In this document: positions 2,310 to 54,693 of the stretch, one piece after another
Layout: every line of letters starts with the position of its first letter
Position numbering within the stretch: the stretch's first letter is position 1
Assembly: GCF_963676685.1 (NCBI RefSeq)
Contig: NC_092350.1
Location: forward strand, 13,516,001 to 13,580,000
Direction of reading: 5' to 3'
From: Mytilus edulis
Taxonomy: Eukaryota
Length of the DNA stretch: 64,000 nt
Translations under genes and position numbers: made by a program
Notes under the pieces: model-generated
What the model saw: only the letters and a program-made list of their open reading frames with translations
The model's database searches: none
What the model was told of the DNA's origin: nothing

Positions 2310-5300
2310 ATGGATATAGAATTCATGGATTCGTCAGATCTCCTGAAGAGCATAGACAATAAAAATGTGCTGTCAGGTCTTCAGAAAACCATAGATATTG
2401 AAAATATTCATAATCATGGAAATTTAGAAAGGTGGGATCATTTGTTCTTTTTAATCTTAAAGTTTTGTGATGTAAATTACTTCTGTTCTGCATTAGCAAT
2501 TGGAAATAATTTTGTGTGAAAATGTTTTGAAGTACAAATGTAGTATTATTTATAAACAGGTGATGTATATTTTAATTATTTACATTCTCTGAATTGTCTT
2601 TAAACCAGTCAACTTTGCAATTGAATGCACTGTTAAGATGGTTAATGATCATCTATGTGTTATTAATAATGTAGTATACTGTTTGGTACCATTAAAACGT
2701 TAAATCCCTATGCAAATGTTTGCACCTGTCCTAAGTCAGGAATCTGATGTGCAGTAGTTGTCGTTTGTTAATGTAATTTATACATGTTTCTTGTTTCTCA
2801 TTTTTTATATAGATTAGACTGTTGGTTTTCCCGTTTGAATGGTTTTACACTAATAATTTTGGGGCCCTTTATAGCTCGTTCGGTGTGTGCCAAGGCTCTG
2901 TGTTGAAGGCCGTACATTGACCTATAATGGTTTACTTTTATTAAATGTTATTTGGATGGAGAGTTGTCTCACTGGCACTCGCACCACATCTTCCTATATC
3001 TATAACTGCTGACTATCATCCATACATTTTTGATCAGCAAGTCAACTCACTCAAGACTGCACATGTCGATTTTCTTCATAAAAAATGTAATGGTTGTCTG
3101 AGCATCTTGGTACTTTTTTAGGAGTATTGATTTTGTTGCACTTAGTTTTGCCAGAAATGTTACATAATATAGGTGTTCAGCCCTTATTATGATAAATTAA
3201 GTTTTAAAAAGACATTATCAAAACTTCCCAGATGCCACCATTAGGATTTTTATGCCCCCACTGTAGCAGAGGGGAAGTATTACGTTTTAACCCTGTTTGT
3301 CCGTACGTCCAAAACTTGGTTACTGTTCTCTAAATTAAGTTTGCCTCAACTAAATGTAACGAAACTTTTAAAAAATTACCACAAAACTCAAGTACAACTT
3401 TGGGTAGGGTCACTTTTACAGTTATTGAGATGTGTCCCATTATAACCTTACCGTATATGCATTTCGGGCATCATCTGTGTCACATGGACACATTCCCCAT
3501 TATTTTTTTCTCTCATTTTTTTCGTTTGAACAGAATATTTTGATAAAAAATATAACCATTACAAACAGGTCAATGCACATGAAATCATGAAGATAGGGTG
3601 TAACATAGAAGGATGCATTGTCCATACTTTTTATACAACTGTTTACGGGACATATTATTTAAATCAGGTAAAATCTGTCTGGACCAGAGGCGGCTAAAGG
3701 AAAATGTCATTTGACATGGTATCTAAATATTTATTTACTTAACACTACAAGACAAAACATTCAATACATAACATGATTTCAGTGATCATGATGATTGTGG
3801 TAGATTAAAACATTCAACAAATTAACTTTTATTTAGGAAAAGAACTATTTATGATGATTGCCGCATTACTGGTTAATAAAAACAAAAACAGCAAATGGAT
3901 TCAATAAAAACTTCCCGAGGGTATCACAAGCCCAGTAGTAAGCACTGTTTGTGCTGACATGAATTATCATTGATATTGTTATATTTATAAATTAACTGTT
4001 TACAAAATTTTGAATTTTTTGAAATACTAAGGCTTTTCTACCTCAGGCATAGATTACCTTAGCTGTATTTGGCAAAACTTTTAGGAATTTTGGTCCTCAA
4101 TGCTTTTCAACTTCGTACTTTATTTGGCCTTTTTGACTTTTTTGGATTGAGTTGCACTGATGAGTCTTTTGTAATAGAAAAGCGCGTCTGGCATATATAT
4201 AAACTTTAGACCTGGTATCTATGATGAGTTTATTTCATATATAAAGAAAAGGATAAAATCTAACATCAATTATTTATTAGTAAAGTGCATCTAACATGTA
4301 TTGCTTGACTGGTATTTAGTTTTTTGTAATTTCATTGGAGTGTAAATCGTTGACTGAATAGCATAAGCACTTCGTACTTAGTAAGCACAGTGCATATGTT
4401 CAACTGCTTGACAACTCTTTGAAAAGAGGTATTCAATTCTTATAATTACATTTTTTATGCAACAACCCTGAATTGACGAGTTAATTCAAGCCTTTCATTG
4501 GGTTTTCTTTATATAGATATAGGAAGATGTGGTGTGAGTGCCAATGAGACAACTCTCCATCCAAATAACAATTTATAAAAGTAAACCATTATAGGTCAAT
4601 ATGCCATTGTTCACTTAATAAAAGTTTATAGCACTTGAAATCATAGATTTTGCATGTTATACAAAAATAAAATTTTACTTTTGGAATGCCTTGACCAAGC
4701 AAAATAAGAGAATGGTATGAAACTTCTATGTTATGTAATTATTGACAGTTATAATCTTTAATGTGTATCGATACAGCTTTTGAGAGAAAAGCTCAACTTT
4801 ATCCCCATTTCAGAATTTTTGCATTTCCATCCAACTTTAAATCATTGTCTCTTCATATTTGTCTAATTTTCTTTTTTAGATGCAGCCATTCAGCAAGTAA
4901 TATTCAGTCTGTGGCCTCCACCAACATGGATGACAATTCATGTGAATCCAAGGAGCTCATTCCTAATATAGAGGTCACACAACATCTTCAAAGCATCATG
5001 CCACCAGAGAGCACTACAGGAACTCCAGAACCTAAACGTTCTTTGACTTTAATGCAGATGATCCTGCTGAATGCCATTGTTTGTGGAGTAGAAGTTTGTG
5101 CGTGTGCAGGTTTTACCTATATTCCACCAATGTTATTAAAGGCTGGATACACTGAGGAAAACATGAGTATAATACTTGGTATAGGACCATTCTTAGGACT
5201 CATCGTTGTGCCTATTATTGGTAAAGAAAGCGATCGTTGTAAGAGTCGTTTTGGTCGAAGGCGACCGTTTATAGCTGGCCTATCACTTGTTTTATTATTT

Positions 5301-8240
5301 TCCTTGTTATTTATTCCGTATGGAGATGTTATATTTATAAAGCTGTTAGGAGACACATCCTTTAGTAAAACAATGTGTCTCGTAGGATTAACTGTTGGTG
5401 TGATACTTTTAGATTTTACTAGTCAGGCTTGTTTGACGCCATGTGAAGCTCTTCTGTCTGATGCATCACAAGGTACCCAACAACAGGAACAAATATTTAC
5501 CATATACTCACAAATGGTCAGCTGTGGTGGTTTCCTAGGTTACCTAGTTACAGCAATAGACTGGAATTCAATGAGTATAGGTCACTTTTTTGGCAGCCAA
5601 GAAAAAACTGTGTTTTCAGTATTAACTGTTTTATTTTTACTTTTGTTCACAGCAACTATAATTGTTGCAAAAGAAGAGCCACTTAGTGAAAGAGTATCAA
5701 GTCATCTTGATTTACAACAACTTGAAACAGATATCCCAGAATTCAAAGTTCCAGGAAGTACATTAGAATCTGGGTATGAATCTAGCATCAATTCTGATGA
5801 AGAAAATTATTACCCAGGACAATTAGTTAGAAGACAAAAACGTGTTAAAAGTTTCTCAAAATCAAGCAAAAAAGCAAGGAATTATTTCACATTACTTTTA
5901 AATCTTTGTTTATATCCATTAATATTTGTACTTAAACGTATCAAACTTTTAACAGTATTACAGACTCTTTGTAAAGCAGTTGGTGGAATTATATATGAGA
6001 AACTTCCAGAAACTGTGAAAAATTTAATAAATATTCCATATGTTTTAAAAGTTTTAGCACTAGCAAATTTTTGCAGTTGGACAGCACTTATGGGATTTAA
6101 TTTATTTTTTACTGATTTTGTTGGACAAGCCATATATGGTGGCAACCCTAATGCTCCTGAAAACTCTGTTCTGCGTAATCATTATGATGAAGGAGTAAGA
6201 ATGGCAAGTTGGGGATTATTATTTCATTGTATAACATCAGCTATATATGCATTCTTAGTGGAAAGACTTGTGAATAAGTTTGGAACAAGATGGACATACT
6301 TCTTTGGAATGTTTTCATTTTCAATAGCCATGTTTTGTATGGTGACTTGGAGAAATATCTACATTGTGAATTTAATGGCAGCATTTACAGGATTTGCCTA
6401 TGCAACATTGACAACCATTCCATTTATATTGGTTACAACCTATCATACAGACAAACAGGTAATACTTTTACCATTCTTGAGTTATTTCCCTTTAAAGATG
6501 GAAAATTGTTAGTGTCTTTGAAAGTGGCATTGAAAATCACAAAAACAGCTCGTAATTTTTAAGATAAAATGATATATTTCCCCACTGCTATATAAACTCT
6601 TATTATATACGCATTACTCTACCATTCTAAATTAAATACAAAGTAATGCTATACCTTAGGTGAAGAGGAAATCATGTTGTAATTCCATTTAAATATTTAT
6701 TTATAAGTTTTGATTATATGATATAACAATAGACCATAAAGGAATACAGAATAGTAACAATGTCAAATGATACTTAAAATATTGGATCAGATCAGATTAT
6801 GACCCTCTATTTTTACTATTTCAAAATTTTATAATTGTACATTATATATGCATGTTGTCCTATGTCAATTCCCTATTGGAGGAAATAAAGTATGATGATG
6901 ATAATGATGAAACATCCCAATAGTAGAAGTAGTTGGGAAATATTTAGAAAAAATATAAAATAACAAAAGTCTCAATTTCTTTTAATTAAAATTTTGAATT
7001 TTTTTTAATAAAAAAAACAGTTTGCACTTTAAAATCGTTAGGAATAATGGACTGCTTAATAGGGACATATTAATACTACTCAAGTTGAAATTTGATATAT
7101 TTATTATTTCTCTAAAATACAGAAATTGTAAGAGAAATTTTATATTTCTTCTAAAAGATTAAATTGCTCTAGTAGTAGACTACAACATGTTCAGTGTAAT
7201 CAAGGACGTATAACTAACTAATAAGCGTCCTTGGTGTAATGATGGGAAGTTTTGTCACATTTCTATTAAGTTGCTACAGTGTAATCATGGGAAGTTTTGT
7301 CGCATTTCTATTAAGTTGCTACGTTAAGGTAGATGGGGTGTCTAAATTATAATCCATAGAATTTTTTCATAATTTGCCAAAATGTAGTTTATATAATGCT
7401 TTTTAAAAAATAATAATAAAAATAATGGGTCACCGGGCTTATTTCCACGCCACACAGTGTTCAAAATTGACAAATTTTGTATAGATTATGTATGGAAAAT
7501 CCAATTTTCTGCAATAAAGCGTCATCTACACCATAGAATTTTGAGATAACATATGAGAAGATGGCTTTACTTATATGCTTTTAGTTAAGAAAAAGAAACA
7601 ATGGGGTCACCAGACCCGTTTTCTTGCTACATTATAAAATAGGTAAATTCCTAACACATTCTATTGTAAAAGTACCTTAATCTGAATTATCTGCCCTTGC
7701 ATTTGAGTTGCCTCCCCTTATGTGGCAAAGTTGGAAAAAAATTGATCAGACAAATGTTTTTGTTTTTTTGTAAAATACCACAAATATGATAAAACATGTC
7801 ATTTTCTATACCGAAGTGGAAGTTCTTACACATGAATTACCCGCTACTCTAAAAATTTGCACATTCTATTAAAGATCTAGACCTTGTTTTCTGGTATTTC
7901 CAAATCCAAGATGGAGGAAGACACCCTATCTACCTTAATTGTTTAATTTGTATTTTTTCTTCAGGTTTTCTTCTTTGATGTCAACAGTAATGGACCTAGT
8001 CGTGGAGTAGGGGGTGATATGGGTACATTAGATACTGCCTACTTCCTGTCACAAGTTGTTCTGTCTGGCCTGATGGGATACATTGTCCACATGACTGGAA
8101 CAGTGTTGTCATACATGGTCACTGCTGGTGTCATGGGTATTCTGAGTTGTATATGTGTACAAAGAATTATATCTAGCAAGCATGACCTACACCATGTTTT
8201 ACCAAAGCCCAGAGAGAAAATGGGAATATTGAACATCTAA
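2310..8240 (+). CDS. SLC45A3: SLC45 family (MFS sucrose/H+ symporter-like) transporter, SLC45A3/prostein-like; join(2310..2431,4880..6458,7965..8240), 658 aa
   Basis: The ORF 4761..6512 carries GVEVCACAGFTYIPPMLL...LGIGPFLG...SDRCKSRFGRRRPFI and LLDFTSQACLTPCEALLSD plus many TM helices, all typical of SLC45A3. Splices are phase-consistent: AG|gtggga at 2431 to ttttag|A at 4880 (phase 2), and CAG|gtaata at 6458 to ttcag|GTT at 7965 (phase 0), in frame with ORF 8019..8240. The first exon is the least certain. Confidence 0.88.
2690..3002 (-). repeat. Dispersed SINE-like repeat family (aagatgtggt.tgagtgccaatgagacaactctcca)
   Basis: The same motif recurs at ~4512-4600, ~16886-16940, ~29545-29625, ~37124-37300 and ~52050-52090. 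Confidence 0.65.
3249..3500 (+). mobile_element. Short HINE-like element
   Basis: Starts ttttatgccccca and ends catctgtgtc.catggacacattcc. A related copy lies at ~49039-49480. Confidence 0.5.
3913..4235 (+). mobile_element. Retrozyme-like repeat with degenerate type I hammerhead ribozyme
   Basis: Homologous to 59870-60217. CTGATGA at 4157 and GAAA..GCGCGTC at 4177-4188, but stems I and II are degraded. Confidence 0.6.
7328..7934. mobile_element. Non-autonomous DNA transposon with TTAA TSD (Kolobok-like)
   Basis: ttaa|ggtagatggggtgtct ... agacaccctatctacc|ttaa. GG termini plus TTAA fit Kolobok better than piggyBac. Confidence 0.7.
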
Positions 8241-20300: not shown

Positions 20301-23300
20301 CGGTGAAAAGCTCATTAGAGCTTATGTTTGTATTGTTTGTCAATATGCCGAATCCAAATAAAGTTTTACTTACTTACTTACTTACTTTGATTGTTGGTTG
20401 CTTACTGTCCAGTGGCAATTATTTCATGCATGTTCAGGACGATGGTTACATTTATGTATTTAATTTTGCTACATGTATTCATTTGAATCTAATAATTTAT
20501 TACACATACAATTGCCATCAAACATATTTCAGAAAATAAAAGAAAGACATTTTACATCATCAAGCAGTACAAACTTAACCATCATTGATGTATCAGTCAT
20601 GTCATATTTAGGAACTCTTTCAGCTCATGACATCTTTCAGTAAACTTGTTTGCAAACTTATTGTCTTGTATAAAATAAAACTAGAAAGATTATTTATACA
20701 TAAAAAAGAGTTAAAATACGTAAGTTTGAAAATAAGATGGGATAGCAATTATGTTTATCTAAATAAAGTGACCATATGTATTTCAAACTGTATCTTACAT
20801 GACATTTAGGACAACTCCATCTTCCCTCTGGAATGCTGGGTAATGATGGTTCTACACAATGAATATGGTAAGCTCTATGACACGTGTCACATGGAATGAG
20901 GTTATCCACCATGCCACATTTGGAACAAGACAAGTCTCTGACTTCTTGGAACTGAAAGATAAGAAGTTTATTTTCAATTCTTGTTAAGGAGAAACGTGTT
21001 AGTATCTTAGACATTATGGCAATTAAACAGTAAATTGAGTGTTTTCACATTACCTACTTTTCAGTTGTTTTAATTTTTCTCGCTGATACAGACAATTAAT
21101 ATAACATCAACTGACAAGAAGCTCCAGCGGAACTTTTGTGTTTAGAAACCTCTTCATGTCAGTTTTCTCGCTATTACTCATGTTATTTCGATGACCTTAA
21201 TTTTTGACTGAGCAAGTGACCAAGCATTTTCTTTTCCAAATTAAAGAACCTTAGTGAGCACGCTCACATACCCCACGTCCCCACATTGTCATTGGAGAAA
21301 TTAAATAAGTATAAGAAAAAAAAAAATTGTATAAGAAAAAATACTGAATAATAATTTCCTGTCAATATACACATCTACATAGTATGTCCTTATTATCTAC
21401 AAAATTTCATGAAATTCTGTTCTGTGTTTTCAGAGGAGTTGAGATGACAAACTGTTGCAGAAGTACATTGAAGCAAATAAGTTCAAAGGGGCATAACTCC
21501 TAGAAAAAAAATTGAATCGTAATTTCCTGTTGATATGCACATCTACGTAGTATGTCCTTATTATCTACAAAGTTTCATGAAATTCTGTTGTGTGGTTTCA
21601 GAGAAGTTGAGATGACAAACTGTTGAAGTAGTACCTTAAAGAAAATAAGTTCAAAGAGGTGTAACTCCTAGAAAAAAAATTGAATCGTGATTTCCTGTCG
21701 ATATGCACATCTACATAGTATGTCCTTATTATCTGAAAAGGTTTCATGAAATTCTGTTACGTAGTTTCAGAGGAGTTGCGATGACAAACTGTTGCAGTAG
21801 TACATTGAAGCAAATAAGTTCAAAGGAGCGTAACTCCTAGAAATAAAATTGAATCATAATTTCCTGTCGATATGCACAACTACATAATATGTCCTTTTCA
21901 TATAAAAAGATTTCGTGAAATTCTGTTGTGTGGTTTGAGAGGAGTTGCGATGACAAACTGTTGCAGTAGTACATTAAAGTAAATAAGTTCAAAGGGGCGT
22001 AACTCCTAGAAAAAAAATTGAATCGCAATTTCCCGTCGATATGCACAACAACATAGTATGTCCTTATTATCTGAAAAGGTTTCGTGAAATTCTGTTGTGT
22101 GGTTTGAACAGAGTTGCGATGACAAACTGTTGCAGTAGTACATTAAAGTAAATAAGTTCAAAGGGGCATAACTCCTAGAAAAAAAATTGAATCGCAATTT
22201 CCCGTCGATATGCACAACTACATAGTATGTCCTTATTATCTGAAAAGGTTTCGTGAAATTCTGTTGTGTGGTTTGAGAGGAGTTGCGATGACAAGAAACA
22301 GGACTGACAGACGGACTGACGGACGGACGGACGGACGAACGGACAGACGGGTCAAAAACATTATACCCTACGCAACTACGCAACTTCATTGCGTGGGGTA
22401 TAATAATAGCATTAATTTATTTAAAGGATCACTATGTAATAACTTACCTCAGAAGCCCCATTTTTAAAGACACCATTTTTAATGCCAGTCCAACTATCGT
22501 TACTATCTGGTGTACTTGGATGACTATTACAAGGTGAAGTACGACTTTGTTTAGGTGGTCTTCCTACAAGTAAAGAAAAAAAACATCTGTAATACTTAAT
22601 ATTGGTTTCTTACAATGAATATAATTGTTATTATCGCTATTTTGTGCATTTTTCCTTTGATCTTTTTTTGTGATAATTTTTCATATCATGCTACTCGCTT
22701 GAGATGGAAAATTATCGCTAGAAACTAAGCAGGCAAGTGGCGTTACTAACGAAATTGACAATGTCGTAATACGTAAAATAGCGATAAACAGATTATCATT
22801 GGTCATCGATCAACAATAATCTATAATTATTTTCATAAATGAAATACAGCTATATAAAAAGTGTAAAAAGTTATAAGAGATTAAAGCAAATATCCAAAAA
22901 GGGAGTGTGCAATTCCGATCTTTCGGATGTCTGATTACCACAAAATTAGTGAAAACAAAATAAGATAAATAATGGTTCATCAAAATAAATGTATCTCCTA
23001 TAATTAAACATGGTATTGTACAATATATAAACGGATACATACCTCTGGACCTTTTACCACCAGGAAGTGAATTTAATGTTAAACTATTTGGTCTCTTTCT
23101 CTGTAAAATAAAACATGTCAATTATTGCATGAGATTCTAATGAAGGGTTTTATGCACCCGTATTTCTAAACACAAAGGCAGTAAGAAATAATGCAACAAT
23201 TTCAATCTAACTTTTAAAACTGATTTTTAAGTTTTAGTCCAATATTATGTCAAGATAACACAAACACATATCAAAAACCATCGATAGAGTTTCAAAAGCA

Positions 23301-36290: not shown

Positions 36291-39200
36291 ATGGCAAAGA
36301 GACGAGCAGATAAAGAATTAACTGACAGAAATTGGGACGATGCAGATGAACCAGAAGAGGTTAGTTAGGGATTTTACTGACTAATTCATATATGTAGGTA
36401 ATATTTTTATCATGGAATTTTTCAAGCGCCAGGTTACGCAAAATAAGGTAAAAGAATTTTCTTAATTTCATTGAAAAGTAACGAAAAATGAATTGTATTC
36501 CTGTATCAAAATTTGCATGCATACGTATAAAGATCTACACTGATTACCTAGTAATTTATTCTATTTATAGAATAGGAATACCACCATAAAGATATTTTCA
36601 ACATGTATTCAAATTTAGTTCAATCTGACATAAAGTAGTTGACCTGTTACAAATTATGAGTTTCTTATCCACATGAACCATATTTATTATACATGTTGAA
36701 TATACCTGACACATGTCGATAAGTACGTACATTTTTAGATAGTCTATAACACTGTATTTTTAACTTTACATATTGTTGAATTTCAGGCAGGGGAAATCCA
36801 GCTTGCCACTGAAGAATCATTAAAAGGAAGACAAATTCTGAAAGGAAAAAGGAGAGGTGCAGCTCCAGTTCAGGTATTCCAATGTATTCAATTGTGCTAG
36901 TTACTGGAAGTTATAAAAATATTGTAATAAAAGAATAACCATCTTTTTCTTCTTAGTTTCTAACGTAGAGTGCAGGAGTTTGTAGGTTCCATCCCTAGTA
37001 GGATCAACATCTCTGAAATATGTATTTGCTGCCTCTCTGCAGTGTATATTATTGCATTGTGGAATAACATCAAAGAGTGGTCGGCTTTGATTCAGAATAA
37101 TGTGTTAAAGTAGGGTGACAACTGATATAGGAAGATGTGGTATGAGTGCCAATGAGACAACTCTTCATCCAAGTAACAATTTATAAAAGTAACCCATTAT
37201 AGGTCAAGTTACGGCCTTCAACACAGAGCTTTGGCTTACACCGAACAGCAAGCTAGAAATTAGTGCCCCAAAAATTACTAATGTAAAACCATTCAAACGA
37301 AGTCTTCTTGTAGATTGTACATGTACCTTAATCTTTTAAATGCTTTGTAAAAGAAATATATACATTTGTACATTGATACAAAATGGAGTGATATGAGTAC
37401 ATCCTGAAGTTAGTTTTTATTTCTTTATATATTTTGTCCCTTTAAGCAACTAATATTTATAAATTTCAGTTATAGATTTGATATTAAAAACCTTCTTTCT
37501 TTTTAGAACAAAGAATTCAGTGGGTTTTCTGGTTTTAGTTTCAAACCTACAGCAGCTAGTACACCATTCTCTTTTAATGTTAGATCGGTCACCAATGGTG
37601 GGTCGGAAAAGGATGAAAAACAAACGGAGAAAACAAAAGAATCTGAAAATGGACAAGCAAAGACACTTCCACCATCTAATGGTGCTGAGAAAAAGAAAGG
37701 ATCTTATTTGTCAAGTTTGAAAAATTTGAATGAAAGTGTTTTATCATGGATAAAAAGTCATGTTGATAAGAATCCATTTTGTATATTGACTCCTGTATTT
37801 AAAGACTACGAGAAACATTTAGAAGAAATAATGAAAAATAAAGATGGAGAGAAAACAGAAACTGGAGAGAAATCAAAAGGAGAAACAGACACAAGTAAGT
37901 CCTGTTAAACCACTGTAAATTCAACAGTCTTTAAATCTGGTATAATTCTTTATAATTTGCGGGCTACCAACTTTCATGGATTCTGAGCGTAAAATTGAAT
38001 CAGGAGGTGAGCAAGAGTCCAGAAATGGTCATATTTGCCAAACGTAACCGATTCTGAATCTATTTGTGCCAAACGACAGATTCGGATTTGGGACAAATTT
38101 TATTTGTTTAACAAAAATAATTTTGGTCATTTCGTTGAGATTGGGTTTCTTCATCGCCATTTTGCACAGGTTTTTGTCTTGTTTTCCCTTCCCTGTAATA
38201 AAACTGCCACTCCTGTATAGTGTTATAATCCTGAGAGCCCTCCTTATAACTATATTAATGCCTCACAGATATATTGGCTGATGATCGCTAATCTCTTTAG
38301 TCTCTTTATCTGTGTTTTTAATTCACACCTGACTATTGATCACAGGCTCAGAACTAATATTATAAAGAAATTAAAATTCCATAAAAACTATCTTCATTAT
38401 TTGATTACTTTTCAGCTAATACAATTGTCAATTCTGATTTAAAATCAAATGAAAATTTAAATTAATTTACATAGAAAAAGTAATTTTTACTTGACATGCA
38501 TGCTTTGTTTACTACATGTATGTAATATGCATGTGTGGAAATTCTCTTTCGCAGATTCAACCACTTAATCGTAAAATGCAAAATGATTTCATGCTAAAAA
38601 AAACATGTGCAACCATTATCATTAATATTCAAACACTAACAAAGGTATAAATTTAAAAAGCAGATGATTTCCTGTCAATTTGATAACCAAACTAATCTGG
38701 GAAATGAGTACAGAATTAATTACTCGTTTTTGTATTGTCGCAAAAAGTACGGTTTGAATTTTGTCTTCAAAATGGATAGAAACTTTAGCGATGTATACAC
38801 ATTGGCACACCTCTATTTGAAATTAACTGTTCTCAACCCATAATAGATGTCAAATTTATTTGTTTGATGTAAGACCAGTTTTTCGTAAAATAGTAATTTA
38901 TTATTTTTTACAGAAACAGCTCCAACATTTCCCCTTGGAAATTCTCTTATGTCACCAACATCTTTAACAACAGAAAACAAGCCATCTGTTGCAAGTTTTG
39001 CATTTGGTAATTCTCCCAATTCTAAAACAGCAACTACTACAGAGACCAAACCATTGGGAACTGGTTTCCAGTTTGGAGCCAGTTTAACTAAACCAACCGG
39101 GTTTGGTTCTATTCCTACTACAACTGCAGCCTTTGGTGCCAGCTCAACTACAACAACTGGATTTGGCGCAACAGCTACTGGTTTCTCAGGGTTTGGTTTC

Positions 39201-42200
39201 AAGTCTTCCACAGAGAGTAAACCTACATCTGGTTTCTCATTTGCTGTAAACAAGCCAGCTGGAGAGAGTGGTGCTAGTCAAGGTATATTTTCTTTGCCTC
39301 AGATTTTTAATGACTTTTAAAAAAAACAACTAACATACATGCAAGTGTTATGATAAAAGTCCCAAGATGGTAGAATGACGAAAGAGAAATAAATAACATA
39401 CCCTAAGACCACTATTCTTGATACTGAGTCAATTTAAGTTAACGGTTCCTGGACATATTTAAGCTGGACAGACAGATGGAAGATGTTTTACAACTATAAT
39501 ATTTGATCATGATGGTCGTATATAAAGCATTCAGTTTATTATTCTTTTTATGTACTTTGTAGAAGAAGATGATGAGTATGTGCCTCCTCTAGCAGAATCT
39601 AAAGAGGTTCCAGAGGAGGGATCAGTACACTCCATCAAGTAAGTAGTAGGTTTATTTAAATCCCTTTCAATCTGAACAGGGAGATGTATGTACACAATTT
39701 TAAACAGAGCTGTGAGAATTCTGCCATTTATGAAATATATTATAGCATTTATTAGAAGTGCACATTTTTAATGGGAAAACATAGATCAAAACACAGCAAT
39801 CAACTAGTTGGAATGTATTAAAATAGCTGGATACTTTGATAGTAATAAGTCGTATAAACAAATGAATTGTCTCCCTTTCATTTGCTCACATATTTGAAGA
39901 CAATATGTTTACAAGATTTCAATTACAATTATTGTATGTCTTAGGAAGACTGAATGTAGGTAAACATTATTTGCTTTTCTACACATTGATATCGTAAAAT
40001 AAGATATTTGCTAAAAAGCTTAACATTGTGTGGAGTGGCTGATATTTTACCATATCTATACGAAGAAAACCCGATTATCTGTGTATAGTTTTATTACTGG
40101 TCATTTCCCACTCCTTAAGATAGATTTACGCTTCACGAAAGAAACCTTGATAACATCTCCTCACACATTGTGACGTCGCTGATAACTTCTCCTCAGACAT
40201 TGTGACGTTGCTGATAAAGCCTGCTCTCGTCTCAAAGCCATGATACCAAAATTACAGAGAGACTGAGCAGTGTGGTAATGTGTAGGGAAGGACGATGATT
40301 TTAAATATCAAACTGATTTCATTGTATTGTCTCAATAAAATAATCTATTTATAGATGTAAGCTGTTTTATCAGAAAGATGGAGCTTGGACAGAGAGAGGT
40401 GTAGGATTTTTACATCTGAAGATAATTGATGAAAAGTTACAACTTGTAGTTAGAGCTGATACTACCCTAGGTAAGAAATTTATTCTTCTGTAGCATGGAT
40501 TGTTGATGGATATTTTGTAAGATGGTACAGATAGCTTGCAAGTTTTGAGATTGAAAACAAAATTTCTCAGATAATACATTGCAAAGAAGTCATCCATATT
40601 TGGGTCATTAAGTGGTCTTTTTAAGATAGAAACACAACTTTAAGTCATTTCCTGTTTTGAAAATATTTTTAAATATTTTATACCTGCAGAAAATGCAAAT
40701 TTTGTTTACATATTCCTCAGCTGTCCTTATTTTAGTCTGGAACTTTATTATGGTGAATTACCTTAATTACCTTAATACATCCAGTTGTACATATGAAAGC
40801 CAGGAATGTTACCGTAGATACTCGCTTATAAGTCGGAAGTTTGGGAGTAAAATTCAGAATCCAGAGAGGGGTACCGACTTATAGGCGAGATCCAGCGACC
40901 AGAGGAAAAATCCAAGCTCGAGAAAAGTGGTCAGGAGTGAATTTCCTGGTCAAAACTACGTTGGTGATTGCCAAACCTACATAAATCCCTAAATTAAAAG
41001 TTTTTGTTGAAAATAAATGACTACAATACTGTCTTTGTGTTTTATTTGTTCTCTGTTAACATTTTTCTGTCAATTTGTGTTGAATTTCCGACTATTTCCG
41101 GTTTGTGTATTGATTTTCATGGTCAAATGGTTTGTGCATAAACCCAAAAGAAAGAGCCAAGAACCAAAAATGAAAACGGGATAACAATGTACCAACTATG
41201 TAAAAGGATGTATTCAGCGGAGTTATTGTGTCATTATTGTGATATCATGATATCAATTCAATACTTATAAATCATACAATAATCAAAAATAATTTGAAGA
41301 TTCATTCCCAAGATCAAAATATTAGTCATTAAAATGTCTCAGGTAAACACAAAGATTACAAAATTGATTGGCAAGCCAATATAATCCATTGATAACCCCT
41401 AATTAAGAGACAAAGAGTTGTATTCACTAAAGGTGTGAAAAACATCAGTGATAGGTGAACAGATGACACTAATGAGTTGGGAGTTATACACCTTATCGCT
41501 ATTCCCGGCTGACCCGTCTGCTTGAACTTTTGACGTCAACAACAATCACTTTTCCATTGTGGCGTCAGACATTTTGTTTTATGACGTCAAAATTTTACGG
41601 GAACCTGTGTGATTTCCAGCAATGGCGGACAAATAGCGATAAGGTGTATTTTAATATAAAGTTGATTAGCTTCACTTAATTTTTTTAATCCTATAATCAT
41701 CACAATATAATGAGAATTATGAAGTGTACATGCTCCTTTAACACTGAGTTATGTGTGCTGTGAAAATATTGATTGACTTTAAATTTTTTCAGGTTCATAT
41801 TGGTTTATGTTCGCTTTTCTCAAACAATAGGTTGTTAGTCATACCCTACAAAATCATTGATGCATTACGTAAACAACACATGGCTAATCTGTAATCAAAC
41901 AGTGAACAAAACAACAGGAATAAATACATCTTTATTATTAAACAGCTATATAAATTATCATAATCAACATCAACTAAATTCAAACCAAACAAACATTCAT
42001 GCAGAAAATGAATATAATTCCTGGATTTGCATTGGTTTTACTGGCGTTCAGTAACTGTCAGCTGCAAACAAAAATGTCCAAATTTTGTCCGACTTATACG
42101 AGGGTCAAGACTAAATCCTCAGAATTTGGAGCTGAAAAGGGCATCCAACTTATAGTCGGATCGACTTATAGGCGAGTATCTACGGTAAGATATATAGAAA

Positions 42201-47891: not shown

Positions 47892-49620
47892 TATACAAAT
47901 AAAACCATGAATTGATTCCTATTGAGGCAACTATCCACAAGGGACAATATGACCATGATAGAAACAATAGGTTGTTATGCAGCCTTGAACAATGAGATAA
48001 ACGGTTTAACCTGCACTACATAGTAATGCAAAAGGCCAAAAGTGACAAATTTAAACAGTTCAGCCTAGAAAAGCAATGGCCTGATTGATATAAAAAAAAA
48101 CAAATATGAGATACAATTAAAAAAAAATGATAACTGAATAAGTGGCTCCTGTTTTGGAACAGGCGTATACAAAATGAACTGGGTTCAACATGTTATTTAC
48201 CCCAAATATAGGACAGTCTGTTACAGCTCAACATAAGATCAAACTGTAAAAATCAGTTTAAATTGACTACACTCATTAGATCGACACAAAGCTAAATCAA
48301 AAATCAAAAACCATCAAAAGACTAAAGACACACAATGATCTGAGTTGACTCACAGCTTCTGAAAGCTAGTTCAATGCCAACATTTACTAATTAAAAAGTC
48401 ATCCATCCAAAACAACACTTTCTAAATATGCTAATTGACTCCTTTTAAACCTCATTTTGGTGGTATAAGTTTGTGTGTATACTTATATATTTTCTTCCCA
48501 ACTGGTTTCTGAGCATTCTGGATTACTGTTTATCCAGTGTGCCAGGTGCTATCAACTTTGTCATTGAGTTTCATATGAAATCAGAAACAAAGTCCCAACA
48601 GTTCTTGTTATTCAGCATTTACAAATGCAAAATCGAGTAAAGGTTGCGTCTCTGAAAGCCCTCTAATGAAACCTGTATTTTTCAATTGCAGCATTTGATA
48701 GTAATGTTACCATGTAGTATCATGCCTAGAAAATTATTTGATACTGGAACAGTAACCATACTGGTACTGGCTGTACTTACTTACTTTGGACTGTTTCTTA
48801 GATTAAGGATCAAACCCAACTATTCTTGACAGTTGCTTTTATCTTATTAATGTGATCTCCTCTATGTAGTTCTTGGTGTCTGTTCTATTGTATTTACCAC
48901 CGGAACTCTCTCTAGATTAGTCATGTTAGTCTTGAAGTTGGTATTGACATTAATTATGTTATTAAACTTTGCAATGTCGTAGGTGGTACATATTTAAGCA
49001 AGTAAAGCTATTTGCTAGCCTCTTGTGCACTTTTTGATTTTTATGCCCCCACGGAACGGGAGGAGCATTAAGTTTACCCTTGTCTGTATGTAAGTATGTC
49101 CCAAAGTTGGTTTCCGTTCTGTTCTCTTACTTTAATTGCTTCAGCCAAATGTTATAAAACTCATACAAAATGCTTATTACCACAAAACACAGATCATGTT
49201 TGAATTGTGGTAGCGTCCCTTTTAACGTTCTAGAGTTGTGCCACTTTACAAATGATTTTTTTTGTTTCCCTTCTATAAATAACTCTTGGTTTGACTCAAC
49301 CAAATGTTATCAAAACTTATACACAATGCTTATTGCCACAAACTACAGATCAAGTGTGATTTTTGGTGGTGTCACTTCAACCGTTCTAGAGTTGTGCCCT
49401 TTTACAATTTTGCCCCCTTTGTAACTTTATATGATATGCAAGTGGAGGCACCATCTGTGTCCCATTGACACATTCCCTATTTTTTTTATTAATAAAAAAC
49501 ATTGCTACTATCAGTTTTATTTGAATGATGATAACATATTAGAAAAAGCTACCAGTATGTGTTAACCAACAGCCAGGATAGCTGAAACCAAAGGCTTTCC
49601 CACATTATAGTATTTGTTAG

Positions 49621-49740
49621 ACAGGATAGGTGGCGTCAGAGGTAATGCTTTAGTGTTTATACAGGATAGGTGGCGTCAGAGGCAATACCACATCGGTTAT
49701 ACAGGATAGGTGGCGTCAGAGGCAATACCACATTGGTTAT
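49621..49740 (-). repeat. 3 x 40-bp tandem repeat spanning the stop codon of the cathepsin-like gene
   Basis: acaggataggtggcgtcagagg at 49621, 49661 and 49701. Confidence 0.9.
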
Positions 49741-52700
49741 TCTTATTTCTTCTCATTAGTATGTAACCTTGCATTCCCCAGTTTACACCTAAAACATACA
49801 AGATTATACTCTGTTTCACTATTTTGCTGCTTTACATCACTGCTGTGTTTCGATTTTTTAAAAGAGAATGACAATTGAAATAAAATTCAGGGCCTTTTTC
49901 TTAAAAAAAAATCAGTGTTGATATGATATTTTTGATGATATTGTAAATTTTACCGGAATAGCGTGAGACATCAGTTACATGAAATAATTTGAGAAGATTC
50001 TTTATTGTAAATAGTCAGAATATGACGAATATACAAATATCTACATCCGTTTGATGCACTTGCTTATAAATATGAGCCTCTGGAAAGGGGAACCTACATT
50101 TATTTTATAAATGACCATTAATGCATTTTCTTTATTTCCTTGTATTCCGTAGTTCTCTGTTATCTATTTTCAGACCTTTTTTTCTCTTTGTTTCTTATCC
50201 CATTTAATTTTGTGTTCATGGCCCAACATTCTGTAATCTGTAAGCCTACAAAAAACATACCCCAGCTATTTTTGACGATCCAATAATCTTTTCCACCTTC
50301 AGAACCATATCCGACGATCTGAACCGCATGATCAAGTTTTGTTGAACTGCACTTTGGTTCATCGTAGACCCCAGCTCGATACAACTGAAATGACTGAAGA
50401 CTAGCATCAATAACTGCCATTACTGGAAAGTGTAACACGGCTATCTGTAATTGGTCTTCGTTTCCTTCTGCAACAGCCATTGTGCCCATATTCTGAAATC
50501 GAAAAAAAATATAGAACAGTTATGTAAAGAAGTTCTAAGACAAACTTTATATTTTTTAACTAAGTAAATTTATAAAGTTTTTATTTTAGAATTAGCAAAC
50601 ATCTATGATATTAATTGATATCTTAACATTGTAGTAAAACGTGGCATGCAATGAAAGAAATTCTTGTCTCTTATTTATACTATTTTAAAAAAAATGCAAA
50701 ACTTATGAATTGTTTGAACTATTGAATACTAGTATACATGATAGGGAATAACATACCCGTACAACGGACGTACAGCTTGTGTTTCTGCACTGTCCAGCAG
50801 AACCATGCATTGGATAATCTGCCATTGAACACAGACCACCTATATTATGTATACAGTTAAACACTGGTGTCACCAACTCAGACCCATGGGTACAGCAGTC
50901 CACCACTTCTTGTAAGCTTAATGGAATCGAACGTCTATTTTTTATAAATTCATAGCTTTCCATAATTTCTGTGTTAAAAAAGGAAAAACAGTTTAATTCT
51001 TCGGCATGTTCAGTACTATAACATTTGGTGAATTATATTCTATCAATTGCACGCAGGCTATTGTTACATTAGTGCATATTTTTTTTCAGGTTTCAAAATG
51101 ACATTTTTATTCTATATACATATCACTGTGTGCTACTTAAAATCTAGTGCATTTTAAATTTGATTTGAGTTGATTTGACATTTTTAAAAACAAGTGAAAA
51201 AGTGTTAAGTACAATTGAATAGGGGTAAATATAGATGGAATGCATCTTTAAAACATTTTAAAATCTAAATCTTTAGCTCCCCTGAATATAAATACTTTGT
51301 CTGAGCTTTTCGAAATAAATAAAAAAGTAGGATGAGAAAAAATACTCCTTGTTTAAAGACATAATACATCTAATAAACGCAAAATCACGCAACTTGATTT
51401 GAAGAAAAATCCCCAAAACAACTCTACACTTAAGAGAGAAACAAAACATTTTTTAAAATGCACTAGATTTTAGGTAGCAGACAGTGATACATCTTCGCTA
51501 GCCAAGGGTTACGATCCACTCCCGTTCTCTTGAAAGAGAACGGGAGTGGATCGTAACCCTTGGCTAGCGAAGATGACAGTGATATGGATATAGAATAAAA
51601 ATGTTAAGTGTAGAGTTGTTTTGGGATTTTTCTTCAAATCAAGTTGAAGATTTAGATTTTAAAATGTTTTAAAGATGCATTCCATCTATATTTACCCCTT
51701 TTCAATTGTACTTAACACTTTTTCACTTGTTTTTAAAAATGTCAAATCAAATCAAATCAAATCAAATTTAAAATGCACTAGATTTTAAATAGCACACAGT
51801 GATATGGATATAGAATATAGATAGTAGCGTAAAATTTTCAAGAATATCACCTAGTGCTGCAATTGAAAGTACTTGTCCCAGCTGCCCTTGATTTTGCACA
51901 GGACCTATTGCACCTTTTGTTCTCCAATCAAAAGTAGACGGTAAAAAAGTCCAATTGTGTTCAATCTCTTCATACTCTCTTTCAGAATTAGTTTTAATAT
52001 GCGGACGTTTTGGTGATTCCTGTAATGATAAATCAAGTAATTATGACATATAAAAAAGAATATGTGGTGTGATTTCCAATGAGATAATTAAACTCATCAT
52101 GCTGACACCAAATGATCCGACTGGCTTGGATATAAAATTAGTCGACAGTAGTTTAATGATGATCAAATTAAAGCATATTTTTTTTCTCACGATGAGTGAT
52201 TAGTTTACGGAAATCTGTCGAAGTGATAAAAATAAGGTAAAAAAACACAAACTAAAACTAAAGGAATCACATGAACTCTACATGGAAAAAAACTGGGTAC
52301 TGGATAAGCGTCTCCTGCTATGTATGCATTACATGACATGCTAATCAACATTAAACAAAAAACATACGTCTACTCGTATGTGGGTCCTTTATAGCTGACT
52401 ATACGGTTATAGTCAGCTATAAAGGACCCACATACGAGTAAACCCAATGTGAAAAGATTAAAAGAAGAAAAATCAACAGTGCGACCTATGCCAAAATAAC
52501 AAACGAAAACTTGAACATCATGACAGACAGCAATCACCGCCAACAACTGACCCGAGATAGTAAAAAAAGAACGCCGGAACGCGTTTTTATACACAATAAT
52601 GTGCAATCATCATAATTGAAAATTAAACAGGTACCAATCTTGAAGAAATTGAACTAATAAGCGAAGAATATGAAATACTAAGTACATCTTCTTTTTGACT

Positions 52701-53376
52701 TTGAGTTAGAAAAAATAGAGACTCGATCATTCACTTGCAATTTTATTTATTTTTTCTCAATTAAAACTGCCTTTTTTGAAAACTTATTTTTAAATTTATG
52801 TAGCTAACCAATAGATTCAGTATAATTTTTGGAGTTTCAAAGCCCCCCTCCCGACACATCATAATTCAAATGTCACCAACAAGTTAATCATCACTATATC
52901 AATGCCAATATGCGTTTTAATCATACATACTAGTAATATCTTATGAAGATCAAAATTTGCTGACACTTTTTTGTTAATAGTGTCCGGAGTTTAGTTCTTT
53001 AGTTCTAAAGATGAAAATAAAAAAATGCTATGTTGTCCCCGTACAAAGACAATTTATGAATATTACTATCAGAGGATGTCGTTTTGGGGTTATTGTTTCT
53101 TCTATGTACGGTTCACATTTTAAATACAATAACATAAAAACCCACCTGGTCAGCAAATTCGTTCATTGCCAATCTGAATTCTGACTGTACATCATTGTTG
53201 TGTGCATTAACATATTCCAGGTTCATCTCCCACACGGCACGCTTGTTAGCTTCATCTTCTGAAGTACTGTAATATTTGTCAAAGTCAGTTTTCCACTGAT
53301 TCCATTGACCATTTAGATCAACTACAGCCAAAGAAGCCGACACAAATGTTGCCGTGAAAAATAAAATCAATTTCAT
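49697..53376 (-). CDS. Secreted cathepsin L-like (papain family C1A) protein lacking the catalytic cysteine; exons 53376-53146, 52019-51851, 50968-50757, 50492-50261, 49788-49697; 311 aa
   Basis: Signal peptide [17 protein letters not shown], then an I29 propeptide with ERFNIN-like ([19 protein letters not shown]) and AMNEFAD motifs. Mature domain: [11 protein letters not shown]...[74 protein letters not shown]. No stops or frameshifts. Confidence 0.88.
51108..51817. repeat. Composite foldback (inverted-repeat) structure in cathepsin-like intron 2
   Basis: ~51108-51273 is inverted versus ~51647-51817, and 51391-51433 is inverted versus 51604-51645. Confidence 0.8.
51490..51575. mobile_element. 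86-bp perfect hairpin MITE with 9-bp TSD (Mutator-like)
   Basis: 42-bp perfect arms with a 2-nt loop. acagtgata at 51481-51489 and 51576-51584. Confidence 0.85.
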
Positions 53377-54040
53377 TATAAACAAATTATTTTAAAATGT
53401 GATGATTTAATATTTAATATTTATATATCTTTATACAACAACATGTGATAGAATAAGGTATCATATGATAACAATGTGTTAAACACGTGTCACAAATTGA
53501 TATGGGACATTTGTTTAAAACTAATCAAAAACCCTTGATTTCTTCCCTTTCCTATTTATAGTGAATTTATAATAACATGTAGCTCAAAATTTTCTGATTT
53601 GTTTTGCTTTATTTATGTTTTATTCAATCTGGAAATTCTTTAAAAATATTCTTTCCCACGTTTCCCGTTCAAGTTTGTGGAAGCTCTTTTGGTATGAGCT
53701 ACGTATAATTCCGACCAACATTAGTGCGTCTACGTGATCTACGTGATACTTGTATAACTAGACACATGTCCTATGATTTGAATAGAAGTTTTTACATTGT
53801 CATCATCTTGACAAAACCGTAGGTACTTTTACATTGGAATTACCACAAATATGGAACTCAATAGCTGATATCTGTAACTATCTGTTTTGCCAGGGTTATA
53901 TAAAGGCAACAGTAGTATATCGGTGTTCATAAGTCATAAATCTATTGAGAGGAAACAAATCTTAGCCACAAACCAAAACTGAGAGAAACACATCAACTAA
54001 AAGAGGATGAGTTTCACTTTTTACTTGTTCATGGTGATTT

Positions 54041-54693
54041 AGACTTACATCTAGAAATTGACAATGAGGGTCGGTTGAAAACAAAACTTTACGACAAAAG
54101 AGATGATTTCAGCTTTCCAATTGTGAACTTTCCATTTCTAAGTAGCAACATTCCAGCAGCACCTGCATACGGGGTATATATCTCCCAATTGATACGATAT
54201 TCCCGTGCTTGCATTTCCTATCATGATTTTCTTGATAGAGGTTTGCTGCTCACAAGGAAGCTATTAAACCAAGAGTTCCAAATGGTGAAGTTGAAATCAT
54301 CCCTTCGTAAATTTTACGGACGCCATCACGAGTTGGTTGACCGTTATGGAATAACCGTTTCACAAATGATATCGGATATGTTCCTTACGTCGTAACTACA
54401 ATTCCCTTCCCTTTCATGAATATGACCTACCGAATAAGACTATTTACCGGATTTGTAATCACTTAAGCAACACGACGGGTGCCACATGTGGAGCAGGATC
54501 TGCTTACCCTTCCGGAGCACCTGAGATCACCCCTAGTTTTTGGTGGGGTTCGTGTTGTTTATTCTTTAGTTTTCTATGTTGTGTCGTGTGTACTATTGTT
54601 TTTCTGTTTGTCTTTTTTATTTTTAGCCATGGCGTTGTCAGTTTGTTTTAGATTTATGAGTTTGACTGTCCCTTTGGTATCTTTCGTCCCTCT
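54041..54693 (+). mobile_element. 5'-truncated Penelope-like retroelement (RT C-terminus plus 3' region)
   Basis: DLHLEIDNEGRLKTKLYDKRDDFSFPIVNFPFLSSNIPAAPAYGVYISQLIRYSRAC... is an RT thumb region of Penelope-like elements. The ORF stops at 54395. Confidence 0.75.

Follow-up and report, generated by a model that had tools for sequence, protein, structure and literature searches.

An Apparently Undescribed, Very Old Subfamily of Probable Papain-Fold Pseudoproteases Represented by a Single-Copy Gene of Mytilus edulis

A five-exon gene of the mussel Mytilus edulis, located on the minus strand of a 64-kb stretch of DNA (assembly GCF_963676685.1, contig NC_092350.1; hereafter the window, whose positions serve as coordinates throughout), encodes a cathepsin-L-like protein with valine in place of the catalytic cysteine. 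The gene (49697..53376; 936 nt, 311 amino acid residues and a stop codon) belongs to an apparently undescribed, very old subfamily of probable papain-fold pseudoproteases. Judged from the aligned sequences, the valine is one case among many, since the members of this old family show free variation at position 25 together with a rearranged set of cysteines, and the family has likely gone without protein cutting since early animal evolution.

Results and Discussion

The Dismantled Active Site

Exon 2 (51851..52019) encodes the propeptide linker, the beginning of the mature domain and the dismantled start of the catalytic helix. The papain register was confirmed against human procathepsins K and L, with which the catalytic stretch aligns without gaps. 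Val127 (GTA, 51870..51872) was found at the position of Cys25, leucine at those of Cys22 (CTG, 51881-51879) and Trp26 (CTT, 51869-51867), and Gln121 (CAA, 51888..51890), which corresponds to the oxyanion-hole residue Gln19, was retained. The C-x-G-G loop was gone, the remaining loop being short and without the second cysteine, and a six-frame scan of the window gave no GC.GG. Exon 4 (50261..50492), coding for the right domain (PF00112, E 1.9e-23), retained His259 (papain His159, 50330-50328), Asn279 (Asn175, 50270-50268) and Trp281 (Trp177, 50264-50262), and Trp181 was present as well. An earlier sequence-only reading had described the site in the same way, with Val at position 25, Leu at 22 and 26, Gln19 kept, GCxGG absent and the catalytic His and Asn in place, and the codons and the translation agree with it on each of these residues.

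The open frame without stops announced by that reading was likewise found: all four introns are of the GT..AG type, no internal stop interrupts the 311 codons, and the product is 100% identical to a RefSeq protein of M. edulis (P0002) that bears the automatic name "digestive cysteine proteinase 1-like". Splicing was followed in four sequencing runs, three of which are contigs from three studies whose RNA status is presumed by the tool and not on record. All four splice joints were present, with the same Val codon, in the contigs of three of the four runs, and contigs of 898 and 930 nt, from two of these three, each span all five exons; no alternative letter was listed in the contigs at 51870-51872, and depth was zero in the bins lying within introns 3 and 4. 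An alternative exon with an intact catalytic motif, which would have altered the picture, was sought and rejected, since the coding-strand frames of the introns contained no CxxCW, CW[AS]F or GSC motif.

Intact relatives of 311-313 residues occur in three further named species of Mytilus, with 9, 9 and 35 differences per 311 positions, and Val is kept in all five Mytilus records. The notion of a decaying pseudogene, which the sequence-only reading had already disfavoured, or of an assembly error can appeal to the fourth run (raw reads under a different species label, about 6% of them read), where the exons had no cover; against the intact frame, the canonical introns, the spliced contigs with one and the same codon, the Mytilus records and the intact relatives in many phyla, it is hardly credible.

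A Family without Cys25

A homologue search with the mussel protein (P0001) gave 692 matches, the best 120 of which were mostly one Cys25-less protein per bivalve species, followed by brachiopod, chiton and sea star proteins. A profile of 26 Cys25-less proteins was then searched twice (best 120 of 2,185 and best 150 of 56,317 matches), and the combined set comprised 342 proteins with 390 aligned domains. The family was defined by four extra cysteines at positions 159, 172, 180 and 199 of the mussel protein, which active cathepsin L does not possess. All four were found in 51 of the 390 domains, five of the 51 being the near-identical Mytilus records; among domains with three of the four, two bear Cys25.

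No family domain had Cys25, the position being occupied by Val (18), Ser (18), Ala (11), Pro (2), Thr (1) or Asp (1), and because it drifts in this way no nucleophile is conserved. Trp26 and the C-x-G-G motif were also absent from all 51 domains, and Cys22 was kept in one; in the active-type domains C-x-G-G occurred in 215 of 226. Gln19 (48/50), His159 (50/51), Asn175 (50/50) and Trp177 (50/50) were retained, the single His exception being a sea-urchin member with Leu. Conserved residues specific to the family are situated away from the catalytic position (Ser138, 47/48; Ile142, 45/48; Glu154, 47/48), and an N-glycosylation sequon between Cys194 and Cys199 was present in 34 of 48 members versus 14 of 226 active-type domains.

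The search for molluscan orthologues proposed earlier thus returned Cys25-less relatives in bivalves, in snails and far beyond. Named members came from bivalves (mussels, scallops, ark shell, clams, freshwater mussels, pearl oyster, oysters and Solemya), snails (Haliotis, Babylonia and Lymnaea), a brachiopod (Lingula), a rotifer (Adineta), echinoderms (Acanthaster, Patiria, Strongylocentrotus and Diadema), an acorn worm (Glandiceps), amphioxus (Branchiostoma), sponges (Dysidea and Sycon) and, as one transcript record, the choanoflagellate Codosiga, mostly with one or two copies per named species; Liolophura and Lottia each lack one of the four family cysteines. The records seen carry names such as "cathepsin L-like". 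Among the best matches listed, none of the named members came from an arthropod, a nematode, a cnidarian or a vertebrate, which does not show that these groups lack the family. A query of the ESM Atlas returned only generic C1A clusters.

Some proteins lie at the edge of the family or outside it. The Ephydatia protein P0134, together with P0228, P0255, P0306 and the metagenome locus L020, forms a side branch with Cys159 and Cys172 and without Cys180, Cys199 and Cys25; in P0134 His is replaced by Leu, and the trees place the branch at the family edge. In the choanoflagellate record (P0234) the family domain is preceded by the C-terminal portion of another papain domain, which is more degenerate. 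Proteins of a coral type with Ser25-Trp26 (P0054, P0105, P0129, P0050, P0145 and P0172) also have neither Cys22 nor the C-x-G-G loop. A Tubulanus protein (P0040) and the coral Ser-Trp proteins, first counted as members, were excluded by the trees.

Rebuilt Cysteines and a Decayed Propeptide

The mussel protein has exactly eight cysteines, all within the mature domain. Six of them (Cys158, 159, 172, 180, 194 and 199) are encoded by exon 3 (50757..50968), which covers the left domain without its C-x-G-G loop and carries a sequon at Asn196. In the adjacent pair Cys158-Cys159 (50892..50897) the former corresponds to papain Cys56 and the latter is family-specific. The best PDB matches of exon 3 were ginger protease II and falcipain-2, and Cys158, 180, 194 and 199 align to falcipain-2 Cys73, 99, 114 and 119, the bonds of which are given as 73-114 and 99-119 in the available portion of a review (PMC6411711). 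In the 292 domains outside the family, cysteines 159 and 172 (p = 7.5e-12) as well as 180 and 199 (p = 7.4e-23) occurred together, in contrast to the four cross pairs (p 0.23-0.64), all these values ignoring the relatedness of the domains; a pair of the Cys180-Cys199 type was present in 17 domains outside the family. We infer four disulfides, 158-194, 159-172, 180-199 and 252-301.

With all eight cysteines paired in this manner no free thiol would be left for a nucleophile that had moved. The retained His, Asn and Gln19 and the four new cysteines might suggest that the nucleophile has moved and that proteolysis persists. The new cysteines, however, co-occur in pairs, two of them matching a known falcipain bond, positions 22-29 hold no Ser, Thr or Cys conserved in the family, and the segment that makes a propeptide inhibitory is degenerate or absent; we regard such a relocation as very improbable.

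Exon 1 (53146..53376), whose joint was seen spliced, encodes a hydrophobic N-terminus that is signal-like by eye and an I29 propeptide (PF08246, E 1.9e-12). As the sequence-only reading had noted, the propeptide is of the ERFNIN type, both the helix of that name and the NxFxD motif being kept. The helix motif that follows NxFxD and leads over the cleft is missing from the linker in exon 2 and from all 35 family proteins compared, versus its presence in 129 of 166 active-type ones. The propeptide was missing altogether in 7 of 47 family proteins, the Sycon short form being present in two records; the one active-type protein of 180 flagged as short was a false match of the search pattern. All seven short forms still hold His, Asn, Trp177 and Gln19, so these residues are not kept solely for propeptide docking.

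A scan of 76 metagenome loci found the family only in L015-L019, which contain two family genes in tandem, both without introns and without a propeptide, separated by about 1 kb and surrounded by DNA of 39-41% GC with few genes; the gene pair was read directly in L015-L018. These are possibly retrocopies in an animal host. A viral origin of the short forms was dismissed, the sign of it being a single 30-residue match with E 1e-3.

The AlphaFold2 model of the mussel protein (pLDDT 89, pTM 0.87) found its nearest solved folds by Foldseek in procathepsins K and L (TM about 0.83; procathepsin K, E 3e-29). Mean column conservation, family versus active-type, was 0.45 versus 0.95 at the start of the catalytic helix and 0.32 versus 0.58 in the 160-171 loop, and in the right domain, which is not relaxed, 0.69 versus 0.73 and 0.72 versus 0.75. 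Such conservation of the protein argues for selection on the right domain.

Phylogeny and Age

Four trees of mature domains were built, all unrooted, holding no identified silicatein and no labelled cathepsin O, F or H. The 117-row tree (quick search, mixture model), which left out five fused, tandem or truncated rows and two without the anchor motif, gave a 29-row Cys25-less side with an SH-aLRT of 100. In the 88-row tree, the largest with bootstrapping, all 37 four-cysteine rows and eight other Cys25-less rows fell on one side with a support of just 63/90, the bootstrap being unsettled. Without the intermediate row P0244 a 54-row tree supported the family side with 100/97, and with P0244 back and the diagnostic columns removed a 44-row tree gave 98/90 for 19 four-cysteine rows, the Ephydatia protein P0134 and P0269.

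The Ser25 proteins of corals, rotifers, a sea cucumber and a nemertean fell outside the family, those of corals, rotifers and the sea cucumber among or beside ordinary cathepsin L, and therefore represent separate losses; on the trees, the coral-type Ser25-Trp26 set appears as an independent, convergent loss. The Dysidea member resembles the mussel protein more (45% identity, 235 bits) than does an active cathepsin L of a clam (39%, 204 bits). Taken as they stand, the sequences suggest a single early loss of the nucleophile, before the split of sponges and bilaterians and possibly before animals.

What the Family May Do

It is very probable that neither the mussel protein nor its family is a cysteine protease, because position 25 drifts, the adjacent residues forming S1-S3 have been lost, and the propeptide has either decayed in its inhibitory portion or disappeared. 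The suggestion of the sequence-only reading that the gene encodes a pseudoprotease therefore stands in so far as cysteine-protease activity is very unlikely; its emphasis on Val understates the case, the whole family having lost Cys25.

The explanation we favour, with about even confidence, is non-catalytic binding of a ligand through that half of the former active-site cleft which has stayed conserved. The nucleophile would have been lost once and early, leaving a papain-fold pseudoprotease; the lost Cys22-Cys63 bond would be offset by the new Cys159-Cys172 bond and by Cys180-Cys199 of the falcipain type; the propeptide would be kept as an aid to folding or trafficking, its inhibitor role gone, and would hence be dispensable. 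The unprimed side of the cleft (S1-S3) would be free to change, with the primed side and the right domain selected as the predicted ligand-binding surface. The product likely enters the secretory route, and lysosomal targeting would fit as well as secretion. Most of the named owners are particle feeders or digest intracellularly, and for this reason lysosomes, phagosomes or gut fluid are our guess for the site of action.

Besides the relatedness ignored by the co-occurrence values and the modest support in the largest bootstrapped tree, several points weigh against this interpretation. The definition is circular as far as the four cysteine columns go, and their conservation carries no weight. 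Ser is as frequent as Val at position 25 (18/51 each), so some members could keep Ser chemistry. The other Cys25-less domains, outside the family, keep His (45/52), Asn (51/52) and Trp177 (49/50) as well, and the retention of these residues may therefore be structural and weak evidence for a binding site. A simple model underlay three of the four trees, the branches of the family are long, and the pre-animal age hangs on one choanoflagellate transcript record.

Structural retention leads to another explanation, to which we give a modest chance: the old active-site residues would only hold the fold, and the function would lie on another surface, as in a scaffold, a component of matrix or mucus, or a protein that accompanies active cathepsins in trafficking. 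Ser138, Ile142, Glu154 and the sequon between Cys194 and Cys199, all away from the catalytic position, are consistent with it, as are the unrelated Cys25-less domains just mentioned. His and Gln19, however, are surface residues of the papain cleft. There is a precedent in SERA5, an essential, non-enzymatic papain fold according to the part of PMC4671257 at hand; yet His and Gln19, nearly fixed here, are lost or changed in the scabies mite SMIPP-Cs in the available text of PMC5956821.

A catalyst that needs no nucleophile, or for which Ser is optional, is fairly unlikely. His159 held by Asn175 would activate water or a hydroxyl, Gln19 would steady the anion, and the loss of Cys25 and Trp26 would have opened the pocket. 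The persistence of His, Asn and Gln19 from sponge to amphioxus and the absence of Trp26 from every member speak for such a mechanism, although a calcareous sponge and many animals that build no silica skeleton are among the owners, and the data point to no substrate. Position 25 is Val, Ala or Pro in 31 of 51 domains, one sea-urchin member has Leu for His, and the other Cys25-less proteins retain His nearly as often. For silicateins a non-covalent, Gln-assisted mechanism has been proposed (PMC6233156, in the text available).

A decoy role, in which the protein would sequester inhibitors of the cystatin type that come from food organisms or from parasites and so shield active cathepsins, seems improbable, even though the primed side (Gln19, Trp177, Trp181) is intact. 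Where the N-terminal trunk of cystatins binds, the cleft is lined by the Gly65-Gly66 loop and Trp26, and the idea is weakened by their loss in all 51 members. Decoys in an arms race usually multiply and change fast, but this gene is present in one copy in the genome and in mostly one or two per named species. An inactive cathepsin B paralogue of a fluke did form a complex with chicken cystatin, but the complex was weak, formed overnight, and was not obtained with human cystatins B and C, as described in the accessible part of PMC7054455.

Comparison with Known Papain-Type Proteins

The mussel protein shares with cathepsins L and K (MEROPS C1A) the fold, the I29 propeptide, 36-41% identity, the right-domain motifs and Gln19, His159, Asn175 and Trp177. 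The family differs from them in having no Cys25, Cys22, Trp26 or C-x-G-G, in its four extra cysteines, in Glu for Asn before the DC motif, in the lost propeptide helix motif and in its own side of the tree. Against PDB the mussel protein scored 191 bits with procathepsins K and L, 146 bits with pro-cathepsin H and 149 bits with silicatein alpha (6zq3), the latter also less than with mature cathepsins K and L.

Silicateins resemble it in a cathepsin-L fold without catalytic Cys in which His and Asn are kept; they have a Ser26-His165-Asn185 triad with fixed Ser and a conserved aromatic neighbour (both from the consulted part of PMC6233156). In contrast, the mussel protein has Val-Leu, and Ser occurs in only 18 of 51 family domains. 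Residues and match score set the mussel protein apart, and by these sequence measures it is not a silicatein.

The SMIPP-Cs of the scabies mite are inactive C1A paralogues too, all without predicted propeptide (cf. the 7 of 47 here), but they are mite-specific, with Ser for Cys and His lost, whereas the mussel family is ancient and keeps His. The sequence-only reading was mistaken in crediting them with various residues at the catalytic position, each having Ser (PMC5956821, in the portion seen for all these statements). SERA5 of Plasmodium and TrCB1.6 of a fluke are alike in the papain fold, and their non-enzymatic role was demonstrated experimentally (PMC4671257, PMC7054455); they belong to other C1A branches, are restricted to parasites and have Ser or Gly at the site. 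In falcipain-2 and falcipain-3, which are active proteases, the pair Cys99-Cys119 (Gly-Gly-x-Cys ... Cys) aligns with Cys180-Cys199 of the family, a bond called unique to falcipains and parasite homologues in the section of PMC6411711 at hand. In the cathepsin-L-like Ser25-Trp26 proteins of corals, rotifers and a sea cucumber Cys25 is replaced as well, and some corals have lost Cys22; they stand outside the family. Testins, soybean P34 and TINAG are further cases for comparison among papain-type proteins.

Kordis and Turk (2023) distinguish ten C1A lineages, of which the present family is not one and none of which is described as inactive in the available text, where the word "inactive" occurs twice, for zymogens both times (PMC10380794). 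Full-text literature searches, whose coverage leaves most subscription papers outside, found no description of a family with the four extra cysteines, and searches by accession for the tissue or function of members found no papers. The family is not described in the parts available of PMC12032550, PMC7148315 and PMC13142308. The supplements of a limpet shell proteome (PMC3374290, 12 files) contained neither the limpet member nor the word "cathepsin", which is absent from the main text of PMC8194122 too, and 10 of the 11 Ephydatia supplement files of PMC7385117 gave no match.

The Locus and Its Surroundings

Every exon matched Pfam I29 or Peptidase_C1 in collinear order, exon 2 under the curated cut-off, and the whole protein matched PF00112 over residues 103-311 (E 3e-58) and PF08246 (E 1.4e-11). 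Among the best candidates scored, genome searches gave one match for exon 2 and one for exon 3, besides one at E 0.26, which indicates one copy in the genome; the next-best match of exon 4 had 58% identity. The pattern Gln-Cys-Gly-Ser/Thr-Cys-Trp occurred elsewhere in the genome 13 times (3 in the control), ten of these on one other contig that also holds most of the exon-4 look-alikes; active paralogues therefore exist.

Exon 5 (49697..49788) encodes the C-terminal strands and the stop codon. A 40-bp tandem repeat of 3.1 copies (49616..49740) covers the last codons and the stop of the gene, which are thus triplicated, and runs into the 3' flank; contig depth was raised there. Intron 2 contains nested inverted repeats (51103..51822) with 121-nt arms of 97% identity, which are spliced out; their central 42-nt perfect hairpin (51490-51575) was matched by many unrelated contigs and reads and resembles a small non-autonomous element.

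Elsewhere in the window the plus strand carries a 585-codon open frame with matches to the Major Facilitator Superfamily (4755-6509), a pair of open frames (37507-39317) with abundant Phe-Gly and Phe-Ser-Phe repeats and without Pfam match, which we take to resemble a Nup50-type nucleoporin, and, upstream of the gene, a 148-codon frame (53949-54392), also without Pfam match and presumably similar to a retroelement fragment. A PHD-finger exon lies on the minus strand (20697-21044).

Conclusions

The papain pseudoenzymes silicatein, SMIPP-C, SERA5 and TrCB1.6 are each confined to a single lineage, whereas the mussel family spans sponges to amphioxus. If the present interpretation is right, expression and proteome studies of invertebrates that count the family as a protease misread it, and the cysteine pair deemed special to falcipains is far more widespread. 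The family would also be a long natural experiment on a papain fold without nucleophile, with a bearing on the dispute over the silicatein triad. The gene is small and single-copy, and its owners include farmed bivalves and sea urchins used as models, so that knock-down and the pull-down of partners are feasible. We put forward, tentatively and as a possibility rather than an expectation, that a papain lineage without nucleophile, older than animals, would have been maintained all the way from choanoflagellates and sponges to molluscs, echinoderms and amphioxus because its His-Asn-Gln half-site has a new, conserved job in particle feeding or intracellular digestion, in which it may serve as a receptor or as a nucleophile-free catalyst.

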